NCBI GenBank assembly: GCA_964453605.1 | Contig: CAYVOI010000001.1 | Span: 310,029-374,028 of the forward strand | Direction: 5' to 3' | Length of the DNA: 64,000 nucleotides | Source of the DNA: an uncultured Gammaproteobacteria bacterium | GTDB lineage: Bacteria; Patescibacteriota; Patescibacteriia; Veblenbacterales; UBA10138 | Shown here: piece by piece, positions 2,882-32,786 of the stretch | Layout of the letters: each line of letters starts with the position of its first letter | How positions within the stretch are numbered: position 1 is the stretch's first letter | Notes under the pieces: generated by a model | The model's database searches: none | Told to the model about the DNA's origin: nothing | Seen by the model: the letters and a program-made list of their open reading frames with translations, nothing else | Position numbers and translations under genes: made by a program

Positions 2882-3821
2882 CCGCACCTTGCCCGTAGTT
2901 GGGTTGGCCGCGTTGTTCAGCGTCTGGCCAGGGAGCCTGCGCTCTGCAGCCGCTGGGGTTGCTCTGTCGCCTCGGTTGCCGAGCTTAGGGGCGCAGGCCA
3001 TGCTGCCAGAGCCGATAGACTGGTCGCAGGTGCCGTCGCTTACGAGCCTTAACCTGTCAGCCTCCTCAGCGGTGGTCGTGCATCTGCCCGACGGCCGCCT
3101 GGTAGGGGCCTTGGACCCTGAGCACGTAAGGCCGCTGGCTTCGCTCACCAAGCTCATGACCGCGGTGGTGGCGATGGAGGTAGGGCCCAAGCTTGATGAG
3201 CTTGTCACGGTAACCCGTGCTGATAACACTGACTCGCTACTGCCGTACATGAACGCAGGGGATAAGATAAGCTACCTCTTTGTAGCTGATGGGCAGACAC
3301 TCCGGCTGCGGGACGCACTTACCGCCGCGCTGGTGGGTTCAGCCAACAACGCAGCAGCTACCTTGGCCCGGGTGAGCGGACTCTCGGCCGATGATTTTGT
3401 AGCCCGCATGAACACGCGGGCTCAAGTGTTGGGCATGTACGCTAGCCACTTTACCGAGAGCACGGGCCTAAGCCCGGCTAACACCAGCACCGCCTACGAC
3501 TACGCTATCCTGGCCCGCTACGCCTGGACCAACCGGACCCTCCGGCAGGTGTCGGGCTTGCCGCGGGCTACCTTTTCCAGTTCAGATGGCAAGGTGCACC
3601 ACATGCGGAACACCAACGCGCTGGTCACTAAGCCGCCCCCAGGGGTAACGCCACTCGCTAGCAAGACCGGCTACCTTACCGAGGCCGGCTACAACCTGGC
3701 GCTGGAGTGGAGGGCGCCAAACGGTAGTGAGTACCTGCTGGTGCTCATGAACGCGCCGTCGCTCACGGCCCGTTCAGCGGATGCGCTCAAGGTTATACGC
3801 TGGCTTCAAGCAAAAACCTGA
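2811..3821 (+). CDS. D-alanyl-D-alanine carboxypeptidase (peptidase S11, PBP5/6-like)
   Basis: Signal-peptide-like N-terminus. SxxK (ASLTK), SxN (GSANN) and KTG (SKTG) motifs. The 5' end overlaps the scpB stop, so the true start may be a downstream ATG (for example 2826). Confidence 0.75.
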   Translation: MQPCLSMPTLPTFSKLKNLALRLSRTLPVVGLAALFSVWPGSLRSAAAGVALSPRLPSLGAQAMLPEPIDWSQVPSLTSLNLSASSAVVVHLPDGRLVGALDPEHVRPLASLTKLMTAVVAMEVGPKLDELVTVTRADNTDSLLPYMNAGDKISYLFVADGQTLRLRDALTAALVGSANNAAATLARVSGLSADDFVARMNTRAQVLGMYASHFTESTGLSPANTSTAYDYAILARYAWTNRTLRQVSGLPRATFSSSDGKVHHMRNTNALVTKPPPGVTPLASKTGYLTEAGYNLALEWRAPNGSEYLLVLMNAPSLTARSADALKVIRWLQAKT

Positions 3822-5477: not shown

Positions 5478-6409
5478 TCGACGTGGTGCTGTGGGTAGTC
5501 CTCACCTTAAGCGTGGTGGGGCTTATTGGCTTGGTGGTACGTAAGCTCCCCGTACTCCGGGTGATAGACACAGCTCAGCTCAGCTCCGTAAATCAGAGCC
5601 TGCTCAAGCTGAAGCTCCTCGAGCAGCGCCTGAGGCGTAAGGTGCAGAGCCTCGTGCAACGAGCGAGCCGTAACCTGCCTGCCGCTGGTAAACTTATCGC
5701 CCGCCGTATGGGTAGTGTGCATCAGGTTTTTCAGGACGTGACGAGTCGAATAGAGCGTAAGCTAGAGCGGCACACCGCTGCGTCTGCCAGCGCGGCCGAC
5801 CTCATGGCCCAGGCTGAGGCCGCGCTGAAGAGTGGTGGCTACGAGACGGCTGAGGCTAAGTACCTCGCCGTCCTACGTAGTGATGCTCATAGCCTAGGAG
5901 CTTATGAAGGCTTGGGAGCAGTGTACCTGGATGCACGAGAGTACGAGCAGGCCAGGGAAGTGTTTGAGTACCTGGTGGGGAGGGGCGTGGACAGTGCCCA
6001 CCTGGGGCTGGCGCGCGCTAGCCTAGGGCAAGGCCAGCTCGAGCTGGCGCGCGCCGAGTACCAGCAGGCGCTGGCCCACCTCACGTCACCTCAGCTCCTG
6101 ATAGAACTGGCGCAAGTGCTCCAAGAGCTCGGCAACTCCACTGAGGCCTTTACCTACCTCAAAGAGGCTCGAGCGCTAGAACCCAAGAACCCTAAGCTCC
6201 TTGACTTTTACATCGAACTCAGTATAGTAACTGGGCAACCAATTGAAGCCCAAAGCGCCCTGGACGCTCTCCGCGAGGTAAACCCCGAGAACCAGAAGAT
6301 CCCCGAGCTAGCTCAGGCCGTGCGTAAGCTGGCGGACAAGCTGAAGCTCAAGCGGCCGCGCGCGGCCACGAGCACAACCTTTGGTGTGCCGACCAGGCGC
6401 AAGGCTTAA
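5471..6409 (+). CDS. Membrane-anchored TPR-repeat protein
   Basis: N-terminal TM helix. Repeated TPR-like A/L/Y/E pattern (AEAKYLAVL..., EYQQALAHL...). Confidence 0.55.
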   Translation: MVIDVVLWVVLTLSVVGLIGLVVRKLPVLRVIDTAQLSSVNQSLLKLKLLEQRLRRKVQSLVQRASRNLPAAGKLIARRMGSVHQVFQDVTSRIERKLERHTAASASAADLMAQAEAALKSGGYETAEAKYLAVLRSDAHSLGAYEGLGAVYLDAREYEQAREVFEYLVGRGVDSAHLGLARASLGQGQLELARAEYQQALAHLTSPQLLIELAQVLQELGNSTEAFTYLKEARALEPKNPKLLDFYIELSIVTGQPIEAQSALDALREVNPENQKIPELAQAVRKLADKLKLKRPRAATSTTFGVPTRRKA

Positions 6410-6415
6410 CAGTTC

Positions 6416-6648
6416 CTAGGCCGTTGTAATCGGGCTACAGGCCCTCATACATCGGCATCGTTCGGAAGAAATGAACCTCGGTTCATTTCGTTCCTCACTC
6501 GCCGTTGTAGCTTCCGCCTCCACTCTCGGCTTCGGCGGACAAGCAGCTGGCACGTACTTTGATAACGTTCCTTCACTATGGGGTTGAAGGTTTTCTTGAC
6601 CCGCTGCCTTGTGCCGATGTAGCTGGAGCTGGCCCCACCCCTTCTCTT
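6416..6648 (+). repeat. Degenerate tRNA-Thr 5'-end fragments and hairpins upstream of tRNA-Thr(GGU)
   Basis: gccgttgta / gccgatgta (tRNA-Thr 5' acceptor plus D start) recurs at about 6421, 6511 and 6621. The 6421 copy closes a minihelix (gccgttg..catcggc). A 9-bp hairpin gaaatgaac-ctcg-gttcatttc is also present. Confidence 0.4.
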
Positions 6649-6724
6649 GCCGTTGTAGCTCAGCTGGTAGAGCAACTCCATGGTAAGGAGTAGGTCGCCG
6701 GTTCAATTCCGGCCAACGGCTCCA
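6649..6724 (+). tRNA. tRNA-Thr (anticodon GGU)
   Basis: Cloverleaf: acceptor gccgttg/caacggc, D arm agctcagctggtagagc, anticodon loop atGGTaa, T arm gccggttcaattccggc, encoded CCA. Confidence 0.85.
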
Positions 6725-6792
6725 GAAGGGGTGGGGTAAATGGCGCAACTCCATGCTTGCCCAGTAGGGAATTGCAAAGCGATTCTGCTTCT

Positions 6793-6836
6793 GGGGTAAG
6801 GAGTAGGTCGCCGGTTCAATTCCGGCCATCGGCTCC
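6793..6836 (+). repeat. Partial duplicate of tRNA-Thr(GGU) 3' portion (anticodon-loop 3' side to CCA), 1 mismatch
   Basis: ggtaaggagtaggtcgccggttcaattccggccatcggctcca is near-identical to 6682..6724. No matching 5' acceptor strand upstream. Confidence 0.75.
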
Positions 6837-6928
6837 AGGCAGCGGGCCAAGCCGGCCACGGGCCGTAAAGCCCTCGCGGGCCCACGGCCCTTTACGAGGC
6901 TCCACGTTCCTTTTACGTTTTTGGTCTC

Positions 6929-7014
6929 GGGTGGGTATCGAAGTGGTCAAACGAGACTGACTGTAAATCAGTTGCCTTCGGGCTTCGCAGGTTCGAATCC
7001 TGCCCCACCCACCA
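6929..7014 (+). tRNA. tRNA-Tyr (anticodon GUA), class II long variable arm
   Basis: Acceptor gggtggg/cccaccc, anticodon loop ctGTAaa, long variable arm, T arm gcaggttcgaatcctgc, encoded CCA. Confidence 0.85.
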
Positions 7015-7087
7015 CGTAAAGCTCGCACAGCTCGCCATGTGGTATTAAAATAGTTGTAAGTGGTGCACCCCGTAGAGGTGCGTCAGC

Positions 7088-7123
7088 ACCTTCTTCGGGG
7101 TTCGAATCCTGCCCCACCCACCA
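7088..7123 (+). repeat. Partial duplicate of tRNA-Tyr 3' end (variable-arm remnant, T arm, acceptor, CCA)
   Basis: ggggttcgaatcctgccccacccacca is identical to the 3' 27 nt of the tRNA-Tyr at 6988..7014. Confidence 0.8.
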
Positions 7124-7191
7124 TTCGGCTCGCTTCGCTCGCTCATGGTAAACCAAGCGAGTCGAATGCCCCGAGCCGAGCCGAGGGGTTG
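7123..7191 (+). repeat. Hairpin plus conserved motif (gagtcgaatgcc ccgagccgagccgaggggttg) shared with the tRNA-Pro locus at 31928..32030
   Basis: 13-bp stem attcggctcgctt/aagcgagtcgaat with one G-U pair. The motif gagtcgaatgcc at 7159..7170 matches 31989..32000 exactly. Confidence 0.6.
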
Positions 7192-7206
7192 AAAAACAAG
7201 CGTGCT

Positions 7207-7407
7207 ATGGGTACACTATACTACGTTTATATGATGCGCTGCTCCGACGGTACGTTCTACGTCGGGATGACAGTCAACCTCGCGGCACGAGAAGCTCGTC
7301 ACATTCGAGGTGATGGCGCGAAGTTTACCAAGTCACATGGAGGAGAACGTATAGTATATCGAGAGCCACATGCTACGTATTTAACTGCACGGCGTAGAGA
7401 GATATAG
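7207..7407 (+). CDS. Stand-alone GIY-YIG nuclease domain protein (YhbQ/UPF0213-like)
   Basis: YYVYMMRCSDGTFYVGMTVNLAAREARH is a GIY-YIG motif; an ERIVYRE glutamate is present. About 66 aa from ATG 7207; the track ORF starts further upstream at an alternative codon. Confidence 0.7.
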   Translation: MGTLYYVYMMRCSDGTFYVGMTVNLAAREARHIRGDGAKFTKSHGGERIVYREPHATYLTARRREI

Positions 7408-7464
7408 ATAAAGAACTGGCGCCGCGAGAAGAAAGAACGTTTACTTTTAGGCCTTAAGCCGTAG

Positions 7465-7539
7465 GCCAGCGTAGCTCAGTGGTAGAGCAACTGTTTTGTA
7501 AACAGTAGGTCGTCGGTTCGACCCCGACCGCTGGCTCCA
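7465..7539 (+). tRNA. tRNA-Thr (anticodon UGU)
   Basis: Acceptor gccagcg/cgctggc, D arm gctcagtggtagagc, anticodon stem actgt/acagt with loop ttTGTaa, T arm gtcggttcgaccccgac, CCA. Flanked by gccttaag direct repeats. Confidence 0.85.
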
Positions 7540-7757: not shown

Positions 7758-7831
7758 GGGGGGTTCGTTCAGTGGTAGGACTTCGGTCTCCAAAACCGAT
7801 AACGTGGGTTCGATTCCTACACCCCCTGCCA
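7758..7831 (+). tRNA. tRNA-Trp (anticodon CCA)
   Basis: Acceptor ggggggt/accccct (G1-U72 wobble), anticodon stem tcggt/accga with loop ctCCAaa, T arm gtgggttcgattcctac, encoded CCA. Confidence 0.85.
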
Positions 7832-7868
7832 TGAAAAATTCAGTGGATTGTTCCACTGGATTTTTCAT
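7832..7868. terminator. Perfect 17-bp-stem hairpin immediately 3' of tRNA-Trp
   Basis: atgaaaaattcagtgga-ttgt-tccactggatttttcat. A related hairpin follows the downstream partial tRNA-Trp copy at 7983..8018. Confidence 0.6.
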
Positions 7869-7956
7869 TGTGTGAGTAGGAATCGAAGGGCGCGAGATAG
7901 GCGAGCGAGTTGGCTCGAGCTCGCCTGAGTGTAGCGCCCAGGCCCCGAGTCGGAGC

Positions 7957-7982
7957 GAGGGGGATTCCTACACCCCCTGCCA
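7957..7982 (+). repeat. Partial duplicate of tRNA-Trp 3' end (T-loop 3' side, acceptor, CCA) preceded by gagtcggagcgaggggg
   Basis: attcctacaccccctgcca is identical to 7813..7831. The preceding GGGGG can pair with the CCCCC of the acceptor strand to form a minihelix. Confidence 0.8.
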
Positions 7983-8091
7983 GGAAAAAACAGTTCCACC
8001 TTGGGACTGCTTTTTCCTGATGGCTAACGAGGGATCGAAGGTCATGCCTATAGGTATACACTCTTTCGTTTAGGAGTGCTAGACTAGAGCT

Positions 8092-8508
8092 ATGCGAGCA
8101 GAGGCACTAAAGTATGTAGCTATACTAGGGTTGCTGGCTTTTCTGGCCGTGGGAGTTTTTGCTGCTGCTCATATTATGGAAATGCCGATGAATGAGCACG
8201 GTGTAATGACCGGCTGTTGGTTCACGGGCATGGCTGGCCCCTGCCCCATGACCCTGAGTGAACATGTGGCGTCTTGGCACAGCCTTTTCACTAGCGTTCC
8301 GACTACATCCGACACTTTGTCGCTCGTTGTACTCGTTCTAGCGGTATTGCTGGTAGTCCCGCGTTGGTTCGAACGATACCGCAGGTGGGTGGCGGCACGA
8401 CTGGCACTTCTCCCCAGACTGTACCTGAAGTATCACCCCAACCTGACTCTCGCCACTTCGCTACGGGAAGCATTTTCTCAGGGCATTCTCAATCCTAAAG
8501 TGTACTAG
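8092..8508 (+). CDS. Small membrane protein (138 aa)
   Basis: Two or three TM segments. No recognisable motif. Confidence 0.45.
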   Translation: MRAEALKYVAILGLLAFLAVGVFAAAHIMEMPMNEHGVMTGCWFTGMAGPCPMTLSEHVASWHSLFTSVPTTSDTLSLVVLVLAVLLVVPRWFERYRRWVAARLALLPRLYLKYHPNLTLATSLREAFSQGILNPKVY

Positions 8509-31276: not shown

Positions 31277-31301
31277 CGGGGTATGGCCTAACCCCGACGC
31301 C
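31277..31301 (+). repeat. Internally deleted tRNA-Pro remnant (5' acceptor/D start cggggtatggcctaa joined to 3' acceptor ccccgacgcc)
   Basis: The first 15 nt are identical to tRNA-Pro 31670..31684. The tail matches the 3' acceptor strand. Lies upstream of the GIY-YIG gene. Confidence 0.6.
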
Positions 31302-31386
31302 TGGGCGCCGACGCTGCGGTCGGCGTTCCGCACCAGAAGCGTCGGAATCGGGGCTCCGACAGCGGAGCTCGTCGGAGTTGGTTTAT

Positions 31387-31647
31387 ATGATAGGATATTT
31401 GTATATTTTGAAGAGCTCGCAAACGGGACGTTATTACGTCGGTAGTACGAATGATTTACGTCGGCGACTGGTTCAACATCACCAGGGCCAGACTGCAACA
31501 ACTAAACGTCTCGGCAAGTTTGAGTTAGTTTTTTCTCAGGAGTTTAGTTCGCTAGCAGAAGCGAGGCTAGCCGAACGCCGAGTAAAGGAGTGGAAACGAC
31601 GAGATTTTATTGAAAAAATTATCCGTGATGGTAGAATTAAAACTTAA
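31387..31647 (+). CDS. Stand-alone GIY-YIG nuclease domain protein (YhbQ/UPF0213-like)
   Basis: GYLYILKSSQTGRYYVGSTNDLRRRLVQHHQG plus a downstream ...ERRVKEW glutamate. ATG at 31387; the track start at 31378 is TTG. Confidence 0.7.
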   Translation: MIGYLYILKSSQTGRYYVGSTNDLRRRLVQHHQGQTATTKRLGKFELVFSQEFSSLAEARLAERRVKEWKRRDFIEKIIRDGRIKT

Positions 31648-31669
31648 CATGTGATGTTGAGGTAATTAT

Positions 31670-31745
31670 CGGGGTATGGCCTAATTGGTAAGGCGCACGC
31701 TTCGGGTGCGTGAGATTCTGGGTTCGAGTCCCAGTACCCCGACCA
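31670..31745 (+). tRNA. tRNA-Pro (anticodon CGG)
   Basis: Acceptor cggggta/taccccg, D arm gcctaattggtaaggc, anticodon stem cacgc/gcgtg with loop ttCGGgt, T arm ctgggttcgagtcccag, CCA. Confidence 0.8.
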
Positions 31746-31784
31746 GACAAATGCGCCGGTAGCGTTACTGGCGCATTTGTCTGC
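31746..31784 (+). terminator. 12-bp-stem hairpin immediately 3' of tRNA-Pro
   Basis: gacaaatgcgcc-ggtagcgttact-ggcgcatttgtc. Confidence 0.55.
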
Positions 31785-31795
31785 TGATTGGTAGT

Positions 31796-31812
31796 ATGGG
31801 ACTCGAAGGGTA
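31796..31812 (+). repeat. Inverted partial copy of the tRNA-Pro T-arm (gggactcgaa = reverse complement of ttcgagtccc)
   Basis: Same arrangement as the inverted T-arm copy gtaggaatcgaa (about 7873) after tRNA-Trp. Confidence 0.5.
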
Positions 31813-31908
31813 CTTTAGAAACGTAAACAGTTTTACGTTGCTAAAGACCCAGGCTTTGGCGGAGCGGTGAGTGTTGTGCTGTAAGCACCACGAGCCGCGG
31901 GGGAGAAG

Positions 31909-31928
31909 GAGTCCCAGTACCCCGACCA
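31909..31928 (+). repeat. Partial duplicate of tRNA-Pro 3' end (copy 1), preceded by gagccgcggggg
   Basis: gagtcccagtaccccgacca is identical to 31726..31745. Confidence 0.8.
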
Positions 31929-32030
31929 TTCGACTCGGCCTTCGACAAGCTCAGGCCTTGCCCATGGTCTACGACCTATAGATGAGCCGAGTCGAATGCC
32001 CTGAGCGAACGAAGTGAGTCGAGGGGCGCT
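31928..32030 (+). repeat. Long hairpin (attcgactcggc...gccgagtcgaat) plus motif gagtcgaatgccctgagc...gagtcgagggg
   Basis: 12-bp stem with a loop of about 46 nt. gagtcgaatgcc at 31989..32000 matches 7159..7170. Confidence 0.6.
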
Positions 32031-32047
32031 GCCCAATACCCCGACCA
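32031..32047 (+). repeat. Diverged partial duplicate of tRNA-Pro 3' end (copy 2)
   Basis: gcccaataccccgacca versus tcccagtaccccgacca. Confidence 0.6.
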
Positions 32048-32081
32048 GCTCCCTATTTTTATTGGTTGTCCTGTATCCCTG

Positions 32082-32786
32082 ATGAATTCCGCTGATCCAA
32101 AAATGTCACAACCTAAGCACGTAGCGGTGATTGTTGATGGCAACCGCCGCTGGGCGAAAGCAAAAAATCTTCCGAGTTTGGAGGGGCACCGGGCTGGCTA
32201 TACAAGGGTAAAAGAGCTTGCCCGCTGGCTGTTTGCTCGTGGGGTTAAGTTTGCCAGCTTCTACCTGTTCTCGCGCGAGAACTGGAATCGTTCGGCTGAG
32301 GAGGTGGCCTACCTGTTCAATTTACTGGACGATGGGTTAGAGCGCGATGTTAAAGATTTTGTGCGCGATGGCATTAGATTGCGGTTTGCTGGTAGCCGCA
32401 CTGAGCTGAAACCCCGTACCCAGAAGCTCATGCGCCAGGCCGAAGCTGAGACCGCGGCTGGCACCAAGGGCACTATTGTGGCCTGCATCAACTACGGCGG
32501 GCAGCAGGAGATTGTAGAGGGCGTGCGCAAACTTGCGGCCGAGGGAACGAATTTAGCCGAGCTCACACCCGAAGGCCTCAAAGCCGGGCTCACGACGGCC
32601 CAGGTGCCGCCGGTTGACTTAATGATTCGCACCTCGGGTGAGCAACGTATTTCGAATTTTCTGTTGTGGGAGCTGGCGTATGCTGAGCTCTATTTTACCC
32701 CCGTGCTGTTTCCTGATTTTTCTGAGAAAAATTTAGACGAGGCTTTAGTTTGGTACCACAGCCGCGAGCGGCGCTTCGGCAGTTGA
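32082..32786 (+). CDS. uppS: Undecaprenyl-diphosphate synthase (cis-prenyltransferase)
   Basis: HVAVIVDGNRRWA, FSRENWNR, and C-terminal RFG. The true start may be ATG 32103. Confidence 0.85.
   Translation: MNSADPKMSQPKHVAVIVDGNRRWAKAKNLPSLEGHRAGYTRVKELARWLFARGVKFASFYLFSRENWNRSAEEVAYLFNLLDDGLERDVKDFVRDGIRLRFAGSRTELKPRTQKLMRQAEAETAAGTKGTIVACINYGGQQEIVEGVRKLAAEGTNLAELTPEGLKAGLTTAQVPPVDLMIRTSGEQRISNFLLWELAYAELYFTPVLFPDFSEKNLDEALVWYHSRERRFGS

Follow-up and report, generated by a model that had tools for sequence, protein, structure and literature searches.

We analyzed a 64-kb stretch of bacterial DNA (GC content 55%; hereafter the window) in which the gene order ScpA-ScpB-DacA-TIM-FBA-TPR is followed by a cluster of tRNA genes on the plus strand. 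The cluster comprises tRNA-Thr(GGU) (6649–6724), tRNA-Tyr (6929–7014), a small open reading frame (ORF) of the GIY-YIG nuclease family, tRNA-Thr(UGU) (7465–7539), the L33 gene and tRNA-Trp (7758–7831). The tRNA-Thr(GGU) gene was detected by ARAGORN and matched Rfam family RF00005 with 70.5 bits. It is intact and presumably functional, and is identical at 76 of 76 positions in loci L086, L087 and L091 (L-numbers designate homologous loci in other assemblies). Positions 6501–6904 constitute a three-shell nested tRNA-Thr(GGU), in which two older, broken copies of the gene surround the working one.

A first-pass annotation, made from the sequence without database searches, had claimed that this tRNA gene is embedded in decayed copies of its own ends. 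The claim was borne out, with fragments matching far beyond chance. A blast search of the whole window revealed a 3′ copy at 6795–6837 that corresponds to gene positions 34–76 (43 nt, one mismatch, 97.7% identity, E=1.6e-17) and begins 70 nt past the tRNA; the annotation, which had a 44-nt copy with one mismatch at 6793–6836, was essentially right. The 12-mer GCCGTTGTAGCT from the start of the gene occurs, with at most one mismatch, 4 times on both strands of the 64 kb, where 0.56 occurrences are expected, and none of 100 shuffled sequences reached this number. Three of the four occurrences, at 6501, 6613 and 6649, are at the locus and on the plus strand. Thus, two of the upstream 5′ copies that had been noted are real, although they had been placed about 10 nt off, at 6511 and 6621. 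Two pairs of inverted repeats, 6595–6619/6827–6851 and 6633–6655/6714–6736, flank the gene.

The fragments are not scattered but strictly nested: 5′ halves lie upstream and 3′ halves downstream of the intact gene, and a helix closes each shell. Two earlier tRNA-Thr(GGU) genes, both interrupted in the D-loop, gave rise to these halves, which supports the earlier suggestion of repeated recombination or insertion at this tRNA. The innermost shell 3 consists of the intact tRNA and a 12-bp leader/trailer helix and sits in the D-loop of shell 2, which in turn lies inside shell 1. The shell 3 leader arm CCCCACCCCTTC (6633–6644), followed by loop nucleotides TCTT (the whole segment spans 6633–6648), is part of inverted repeat I2 and forms 12 Watson-Crick pairs with 6725–6736. 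The latter is the trailer arm GAAGGGGTGGGG, located directly after the TCCA end of the tRNA and assigned from the inverted repeat, the helix register and the minimum free energy (MFE) fold.

Shell 2 is represented by three pieces, 6613–6632, 6737–6755 and 6796–6837, and has a closing helix of its own. Its leader arm CTTGACCCGCTGCC (6595–6608) and a 4-nt loop TTGT occupy 6595–6612 and belong to inverted repeat I1, which is 25 nt long, 88% complementary to 6827–6851 and in register with other cassettes; the arm is also seen in the MFE fold. The 5′ part (6613–6632) corresponds to positions 1–19 with changes T5 to A and C13 to GG. The middle part TAAATGGCGCAACTCCATG (6737–6755) corresponds to positions 20–34, contains an exact 11-nt repeat of 6672–6682 and is orthologous to TAAATGCCGCAACTCC in L087. 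It is followed by a 40-nt hairpin insert (6756–6795; −16.8 kcal/mol) in the anticodon loop, at position 33/34 or 34/35. A related hairpin (CCCAGTA...GCAAAGC...CTGGG) was found in the outer copy of L089. The 3′ part (6796–6837), detected by the blast match above, covers positions 35–76 with A68 changed to T. The trailer arm GGCAGCGGGCCAAG (6838–6851) was placed by the inverted repeat, the helix register and the MFE fold. The only mismatch of the 3′ copy, A68 to T, is complementary to the only acceptor-stem mismatch of the 6613 fragment, T5 to A, so that A5 pairs with T68; therefore, shell 2 was once a working tRNA-Thr with an A5:U68 pair. Neither ARAGORN nor Rfam called the outer copies. Restoration of shell 2 needs two deletions and leaves the D-arm aberrant, and a reconstruction with one extra G in the anticodon loop was called by ARAGORN, at a lowered threshold, as a tRNA of the wrong isotype.

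Shell 1 begins with an exact 12-mer, positions 1–12, at 6501–6512; the same fragment is present in L087. At position 12/13 it is interrupted by hairpin insert h (TCCGCC...GGCGGA; 6513–6544; −10.4 kcal/mol), for which L087 has an orthologous hairpin at the corresponding site; the H hairpins, described below, occupy an analogous position at 12/13 in tRNA-Lys loci. The following AGCTGG (6545–6550) reads as the D-loop continuation, positions 14–19, and in L087 also follows the hairpin and abuts the inner cassette. A 44-nt filler of unassigned origin (6551–6594) separates shells 1 and 2; it is absent from L087 and L086, and no remnant of a GIY-YIG ORF was detected in it. On the other side, CCGGCCA at 6852–6858 (positions 61–67), a 39-nt hairpin at 6859–6897 (−21.8 kcal/mol) and GGCTCCA at 6898–6904 (positions 70–76) may represent the shell 1 3′ remnant, and CGTT... 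comes next, just as in L087 it follows the tRNA region at its 3′ end. Of all the part assignments, this one is the weakest. All shell parts are on the plus strand.

The leader upstream of the shells (6410–6500) is nearly identical in L086. The first-pass annotation had counted a third 5′ copy here, as part of a minihelix. The 9-mer at 6420 does equal tRNA positions 1–9, but its count alone is near chance across the window (4 versus 0.71 expected). Since both the 9-mer and its partner TACATCGGC (6448–6456) are kept in the orthologous leader of L086, it is a real but older feature, separate from the recent events. The minihelix GCCGTTGTA...TACATCGGC (6420–6456, plus strand) indeed folds as a hairpin; it belongs to the older leader and is not a product of nesting, and is possibly an ancient tRNA relic. 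A second, 10-bp hairpin of the native leader, GAAATGAACC tc GGTTCATTTC (6468–6489, plus strand), is likewise conserved in L086. A 147-aa minus-strand ORF (6416–6859), for which there is no protein evidence, crosses the tRNA pieces and hairpins. It is a translation of these, as the first-pass annotation had noted for the tRNA pieces; it is not a gene, and its annotation as one is unwarranted.

Four syntenic loci were found through homologues of the TPR protein, in a conserved cluster ScpB-DacA-TIM-FBA-TPR-tRNAs. By identity of TIM, FBA and TPR, L086 is the closest relative of the window, followed by L087, L089 and L091. The Thr(GGU) site is polymorphic among them: L086 and L091 have a clean gene, while the window, L087 and L089 have a nested one. 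The L091 locus is wholly compact, its Thr and Tyr tRNA genes abutting each other. In L086, a clean tRNA-Thr starts directly after the leader orthologous to window 6410–6500; therefore, window positions 6501–6512 are the original 5′ end of the gene. L087 contains, in order, positions 1–12, a hairpin, AGCTGG, a cassette (CCCCGCCACCTC tcag tRNA tcca GAGGTGGCGGGG), TAAATGCCGCAACTCC, an insert and positions 52–76. L089 is nested as well, with more hairpin inserts. Thus, the fragments are neither confined to the window nor chance matches. A metagenome scan for orthologues of the inner cassette (GGCCAACGGCTCCA-N11-13-TAAATG) returned the L087 genome again and two unrelated coding matches, and nothing else.

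The window comes from a metagenome-assembled genome, and repeats of this kind could have been mis-joined during assembly. Some assemblies are indeed broken at repeats: in that of the L087 genome at NCBI, GCA_900218045.1 (L088/L093), the nested tRNA-Thr region is divided between two contigs, while the ENA assembly (L087) spans it. In bins of the candidate phyla radiation (CPR), contigs can end because of nested tRNA copies. However, the same architecture, orthologous but diverged, is present in independent samples and assemblers (L087 from ENA, L089 from JGI and Logan), the nested region of L089 is identical in L090, and an independent Logan assembly has the tRNA-Pro locus of the window, described below, without a difference over 6261 nt. 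We therefore regard an artefact as having a negligible probability.

Genomic islands and prophages integrate at tRNA genes, and the att site duplicates the 3′ part of the tRNA. A 3′ fragment downstream of an intact gene is the classical signature of such an event, an insert-borne segment keeps the essential gene intact, and the Thr(GGU) locus does have this direct repeat (6795–6837). The 3′ copies at the Tyr, Trp and Pro tRNA genes of the window begin within the T-loop or close to it, where crossovers are known to occur. Scars of integrase-mediated integration and excision were nevertheless judged very improbable. No integrase or transposase was found near either tRNA locus; the flanking ORFs code for TPR, thioredoxin/DsbA, DsbD, cupredoxin and UppS proteins, with no recombinase among them. 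The bounded segments are merely 70–200 nt, inserts being tens to hundreds of nucleotides, and a whole tRNA is supplied. The 5′ fragments upstream (6501, 6613) and the strict nesting of helix-closed shells are not made by att recombination.

The closing helices have a constant geometry. The leader from position −5 pairs with the trailer right after CCA, leaving a 4 × 4 internal loop between the 7-bp acceptor stem and the helix of at least 12 bp; a bulge-helix-bulge motif is absent at these junctions. In each of six nested cassettes with tRNA-Thr(GGU), an uninterrupted run of at least 12 Watson-Crick pairs joins leader positions −5 to −16 to trailer positions +1 to +12, always in the identical register. 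The arms have unrelated sequences, with 2–4 pair types per position. Comparison of the arms of the window and L087 shells revealed 3 differing positions, all 3 of them compensated, which argues for selection on pairing. The clean tRNAs of L086 and L091 lack leader/trailer pairing of this sort. The MFE fold of 6591–6857 contains both closing helices and the cloverleaf (−146.3 kcal/mol; z = −7.84 versus shuffles). The helix is most likely kept because it helps the inner pre-tRNA to fold and to be processed properly despite the competing half-copies. A long leader/trailer helix was also considered as a general trait of ORF-linked tRNAs and rejected: a helix of at least 7 bp is present in 6 of 75 loci (control 0.73) and is lineage-specific.

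The same helices could reflect a design that acts at the RNA level. The inner tRNA would excise itself through RNase P and 3′ processing, and the helix, which would bridge the outer halves exactly at the D-loop, would join them as a two-piece tRNA-like or regulatory RNA. The compensatory changes and the folding of the whole region, far better than shuffles, agree with this, as does persistence of the nested state through ~30% protein divergence in a ~0.9-Mb genome. On the other hand, additional inserts interrupt the outer copies, in the anticodon loop and at other places, shell 1 is without large parts, the ARAGORN and Rfam searches did not call these copies, and L086 and L091 do without them. 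The inserts also differ among the window, L087 and L089. We consider a design of this kind improbable.

A possible origin of the nested shells is suggested by the GIY-YIG ORFs. There are two in the window, at 31378–31647, 22 nt upstream of tRNA-Pro(CGG), and at 7207–7407, 58 nt upstream of tRNA-Thr(UGU). In other CPR genomes, every homologue of the former that was found directly precedes a tRNA. A search through species-representative genomes revealed 80 such GIY-YIG loci, nearly all in Patescibacteria; the counts of fragments and hairpin motifs below refer to 77 of them. A same-strand tRNA lies beside the ORF in 79 of the 80 loci and starts 0–230 nt after the ORF end in 76, mostly within less than 30 nt. 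Twelve tRNA isotypes are represented. An exact copy of the cognate tRNA 5′ end, at least 10 nt long, was found 57–134 nt upstream of the ORF in 35/77 loci (control 0.16; a blast version of the search was also run), and a copy of the cognate 3′ end downstream in 12/77 (control 0.13).

Position 15 is the usual end of the 5′ pieces, and a conserved double hairpin H is inserted there: [CCCCGAC..GTCGGGG] AG[CCGAC tgaaac GTCGG]CT. Past it the tRNA sequence resumes (TTGGTAGAGC) just ahead of the ATG; variant insertion sites are 10/11, 12/13 and 27–29. The H motif (CYCCGAC...GTCGGRG plus CCGAC...GTCGG) is present upstream of 68/77 ORFs, compared to 3/77 control windows, and its conserved sequence suggests a protein site. 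In a comparison with palindromic mini-elements (REP/MITE/RPE-like), for which short hairpins with constant ends at many sites would be expected, we noted that in the window H hairpins (CCGAY...RTCGG) cluster at 31294–31375; hairpins of the Thr locus (TCCGCC...GGCGGA, CCCAG...CTGGG) differ in sequence and are few. A complete cassette thus has the order 5′ piece of the target tRNA, double hairpin H, ~86-aa GIY-YIG gene, intact copy of the same tRNA. The cleanest case is L033, with [1–15][H][TTGGTA], the ORF, intact tRNA-Phe and [CTCAG][H′][16–74, 100% identical]. At L004 the GIY-YIG ORF lies between a TPR gene and tRNA-Thr(GGU), in synteny with the window locus. In L004, L061 (also with a TPR gene upstream) and L062 the nuclease ORF directly precedes a helix-bounded tRNA-Thr(GGU) and the outer pieces are full of hairpins; closing helices of the ORF-containing L061 and L062 cassettes are 20 and 16 bp. 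In 42 of the 77 loci the tRNA is of the same isotype as the one linked to the nearest-neighbour nuclease (shuffled 8.3, maximum 22), so that nuclease lineages keep to one tRNA for the most part, yet do change it. Viral contigs yielded only distant homologues of the nuclease family, none with the tRNA arrangement.

At several loci (L062, 2740–2780; L061, 2740–2775; L002/L007, ORF 3001–3297 and tRNA 3254–3329) the ORF runs through the leader arm and its stop codon comes immediately ahead of tRNA position +1, or the ORF even overlaps the tRNA. Processing by RNase P would therefore sever the mRNA at its stop codon or ahead of it, and, to judge by this layout, tRNA processing may be coupled to nuclease expression there.

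The family protein is ~86 aa long and matches Pfam GIY-YIG. Catalytic residues Y6, Y17, R27, H31 and E63 are invariant in the family alignment. Both profile and fold comparisons identified UPF0213 proteins BH0048 and EF2693 and the Slx1 nuclease domain as the closest solved relatives (profile match to 1zg2, E=1e-10; Foldseek matches to 1zg2, 1ywl and Slx1; predicted fold with pLDDT 88.5). The score against TIGR01453 was 22 bits compared to a cutoff of 56, so the architecture is not of SegB/I-TevI type. Slx1 cleaves branched DNA and hairpins, and the association of the present family with conserved hairpins is in keeping with such an activity. Unlike the family protein, Slx1 works with Slx4 and has a RING domain. 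In the literature on UPF0213 proteins we found no described function or linkage to tRNA.

We consider it probable, although not firmly so, that the Thr(GGU) locus is an ORF-less relic of nuclease-driven insertions of self-replacing cassettes into tRNA genes. The nuclease would break a tRNA gene, and recombinational repair would copy the cassette in, by homing or by segmental duplication as for phage SegB. The host would survive because the cassette supplies a working tRNA, and the new tRNA would again be a target, so that shells stack up. At the window locus, a complete tRNA-Thr cassette (shell 2) would have inserted into the D-loop of the original gene (shell 1) and would later have been split in turn at the same D-loop position, after G19, by shell 3, the tRNA now in use. 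Each cassette would be a full tRNA bounded by a helix of at least 12 bp, and the displaced halves would be dead, decaying and collecting short hairpin insertions. The nuclease gene would be easily lost, as presumably happened at this locus and in L087.

The shells might instead have arisen by local duplication without a mobile element, that is, by slippage or unequal out-of-register recombination followed by decay, with the GIY-YIG protein a host factor encoded beside tRNAs by chance, for example owing to common promoters. In line with this, the Thr(GGU) locus has no ORF, short direct repeats AGCTGG and GGCTCCA lie at the borders of the segments in which the window and L087 differ, out-of-register repair can add half-copies, and the mostly constant isotypes of nuclease lineages are also compatible with vertical inheritance. 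However, each shell has unrelated complementary arms in exact register, whereas slippage would copy existing sequence. The compensated acceptor pair of shell 2 points to an independent working allele. The ORF, the H hairpins and the split cognate tRNA co-occur across many lineages and tRNA species, and presence or absence varies at orthologous sites. We think local duplication unlikely, though less so than the RNA-level design or the att-site scars considered above.

Several points weigh against insertion by a nuclease-borne cassette. A tblastn search with 84 family proteins against 6400–6950 gave only noise (E > 0.03) and hence no GIY-YIG ORF or remnant at the Thr locus, so that the proposed link of this locus to the nuclease goes through orthologous and analogous loci. 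No GIY-YIG remnants were found at 7830–8100 and 31740–32090 either. The nuclease has no separate DNA-binding domain and an architecture unrelated to SegB, and site-specific cleavage of tRNA genes by a ~86-aa protein is putative. The model leaves unexplained how a cassette gains the right tRNA when it switches targets and why its own tRNA escapes cutting. Type-B loci (intact tRNA, ORF, hairpin-bearing copy) misfit simple insertion into the D-loop: in L030, L031 and L055 (ORF at ~2501–2755 in each) an intact tRNA and the GIY-YIG ORF are followed by a 5′-truncated copy of the same tRNA with H hairpins in the D-arm and an otherwise complete 3′ part. The window has one shell more than L087, yet parts of shell 2 are orthologous to the outer copy of L087, which makes the order of events ambiguous. 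Long closing helices are frequent solely in the Thr(GGU) lineage, and in a partition-function model of a possible insulating role of the arms the effect was weak: scrambling of the arms reduced the probability of the inner acceptor stem from 0.99 just to 0.94, while deletion of the arms reduced it to 0.07.

The closest known system is SegB, a free-standing GIY-YIG homing endonuclease encoded in the tRNA gene cluster of phages T4 and T6. SegB cleaves within tRNA genes, where it recognizes a TψC stem-loop motif, and its gene is passed on along with the neighbouring tRNAs. It was shown to drive the duplication of a segment with a full tRNA and segB, a process that depends on the nuclease and on recombination, and many tRNA isotypes are involved (PMC2330249; PMC13096335). 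The family described here shares with SegB a GIY-YIG gene among tRNA genes, multiple isotypes and a segment made of tRNA and nuclease. SegB is, however, a phage protein with an N-terminal GIY-YIG domain of the intron-endonuclease type, while the present family is chromosomal, ~86 aa long and of the UPF0213/Slx1 type. A tRNA copy inside split halves of the same tRNA and a double hairpin before the ORF are features of this family, absent from the portions of the two SegB accounts drawn on here.

Disrupted tRNA genes of archaea include multi-intron, split and permuted ones. These and the interrupted tRNA genes of Patescibacteria resemble the present loci in that structured insertions with pairing ends interrupt the D-loop or anticodon loop, and Patescibacteria do tolerate insertions in tRNA genes. 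In such genes, however, the interrupted copy is functional and the insert is removed from RNA, whereas here the insert is an intact canonical tRNA and the interrupted copies look dead. The window locus has no bulge-helix-bulge motif and no group I intron signal: in 6380–7220 neither a group I intron nor another Rfam family was found, at the gathering threshold or at E ≤ 1, and only two tRNAs were matched. A 2025 preprint on patescibacterial tRNAs reports group I introns at position 35/36, with HNH rather than GIY-YIG endonucleases and without nested copies (bioRxiv 10.1101/2025.07.03.662931).

A literature search returned nothing on GIY-YIG/UPF0213 genes linked to tRNA genes in CPR and nothing on tRNA genes nested in their own copies. 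The family, apparently undescribed, is akin to free-standing, homing-endonuclease-type elements at tRNA genes, with a real chance of being a distinct class. A bolder proposal, which we advance only tentatively, is that Patescibacteria harbor an undescribed class of selfish elements, each made of a minimal Slx1/UPF0213-like GIY-YIG nuclease, a double hairpin as its cis site and a complete tRNA as cargo. Such an element would insert in the D-loop (or anticodon arm) of a resident gene for the same tRNA and replace it, making Russian-doll loci, and the nested transcript, as indicated by the covarying helix, would be a processed, selected RNA structure and not just debris. In ~1-Mb genomes tRNA genes are single-copy and essential, yet they are apparently the preferred home of a selfish cassette that brings a replacement tRNA. 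If the proposal is true, it would provide a cellular, chromosomal counterpart to phage SegB and a biological role for the widespread, uncharacterized UPF0213-type mini GIY-YIG proteins. It would also account for the unusual pieces of tRNA, the spurious ORFs and the breaks between contigs that are found near tRNA genes in CPR bins. Further, it would offer a natural system in which a tRNA gene acts like an insertion element and the conserved helix may control pre-tRNA processing.

Elsewhere in the window, the tRNA-Pro(CGG) locus (31277–32047) shows the full syndrome. On its 5′ side are a 5′ fragment of positions 1–15 (31277–31291), H hairpins (31292–31375), TTGG and an intact 89-aa ORF (31378–31647), followed by tRNA-Pro (31670–31745). 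The 3′ side contains a terminator hairpin, an inverted T-arm (31797–31807), a 3′ fragment of positions 57–76 (31909–31928, 100% identical), a ~100-nt relic and a second 3′ fragment (32032–32047, one mismatch). The sequence ACCCCGAC after the 5′ fragment was considered as a minihelix; this was rejected, as it is the start of an H hairpin.

The GIY-YIG gene before tRNA-Thr(UGU) (7124–7461 region) is more divergent, being 33% identical to the ORF of the Pro locus. It is present in the window and L089 and absent from L086, L087 and L091. An in-frame TAG (7405–7407) stands where the L089 orthologue has CAG (Gln), and the conserved C-terminus IKNWRREKKERLL continues past the stop; the gene is therefore probably a recent pseudogene or codes for a truncated protein. 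A structured element U (7124–7190) precedes the ORF; it is also found after tRNA-Tyr in L089 and in L087, where the ORF is gone and the element alone is left, and has a copy at 31929–32028. The tRNA-Tyr gene itself is followed by an 84-nt insert and then by an exact 25-nt copy of its 3′ end, from the T-stem on (7099–7123). The insert is absent in L086, L087 and L089. The breakpoint is in the T-arm, the region recognized by SegB in phage tRNA genes.

The tRNA-Trp gene is followed (7832–8019) by a terminator hairpin, an inverted T-arm at 7876–7887 (GTAGGAATCGAA plus GGG), ~75 nt of GC-rich hairpins, a 3′ fragment of positions 55–74 (7963–7982) and a second terminator. An inverted T-arm copy after the tRNA, seen at Trp and Pro, was considered as a general feature of GIY-YIG loci and rejected (2/77 versus control 1.4). 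Conservation of the Trp module extends to L087, L089 and, in part, L086, whereas L091 lacks it; the part …tttagaaacgtaaac… is common to the Pro module of the window and the Trp module of L086.

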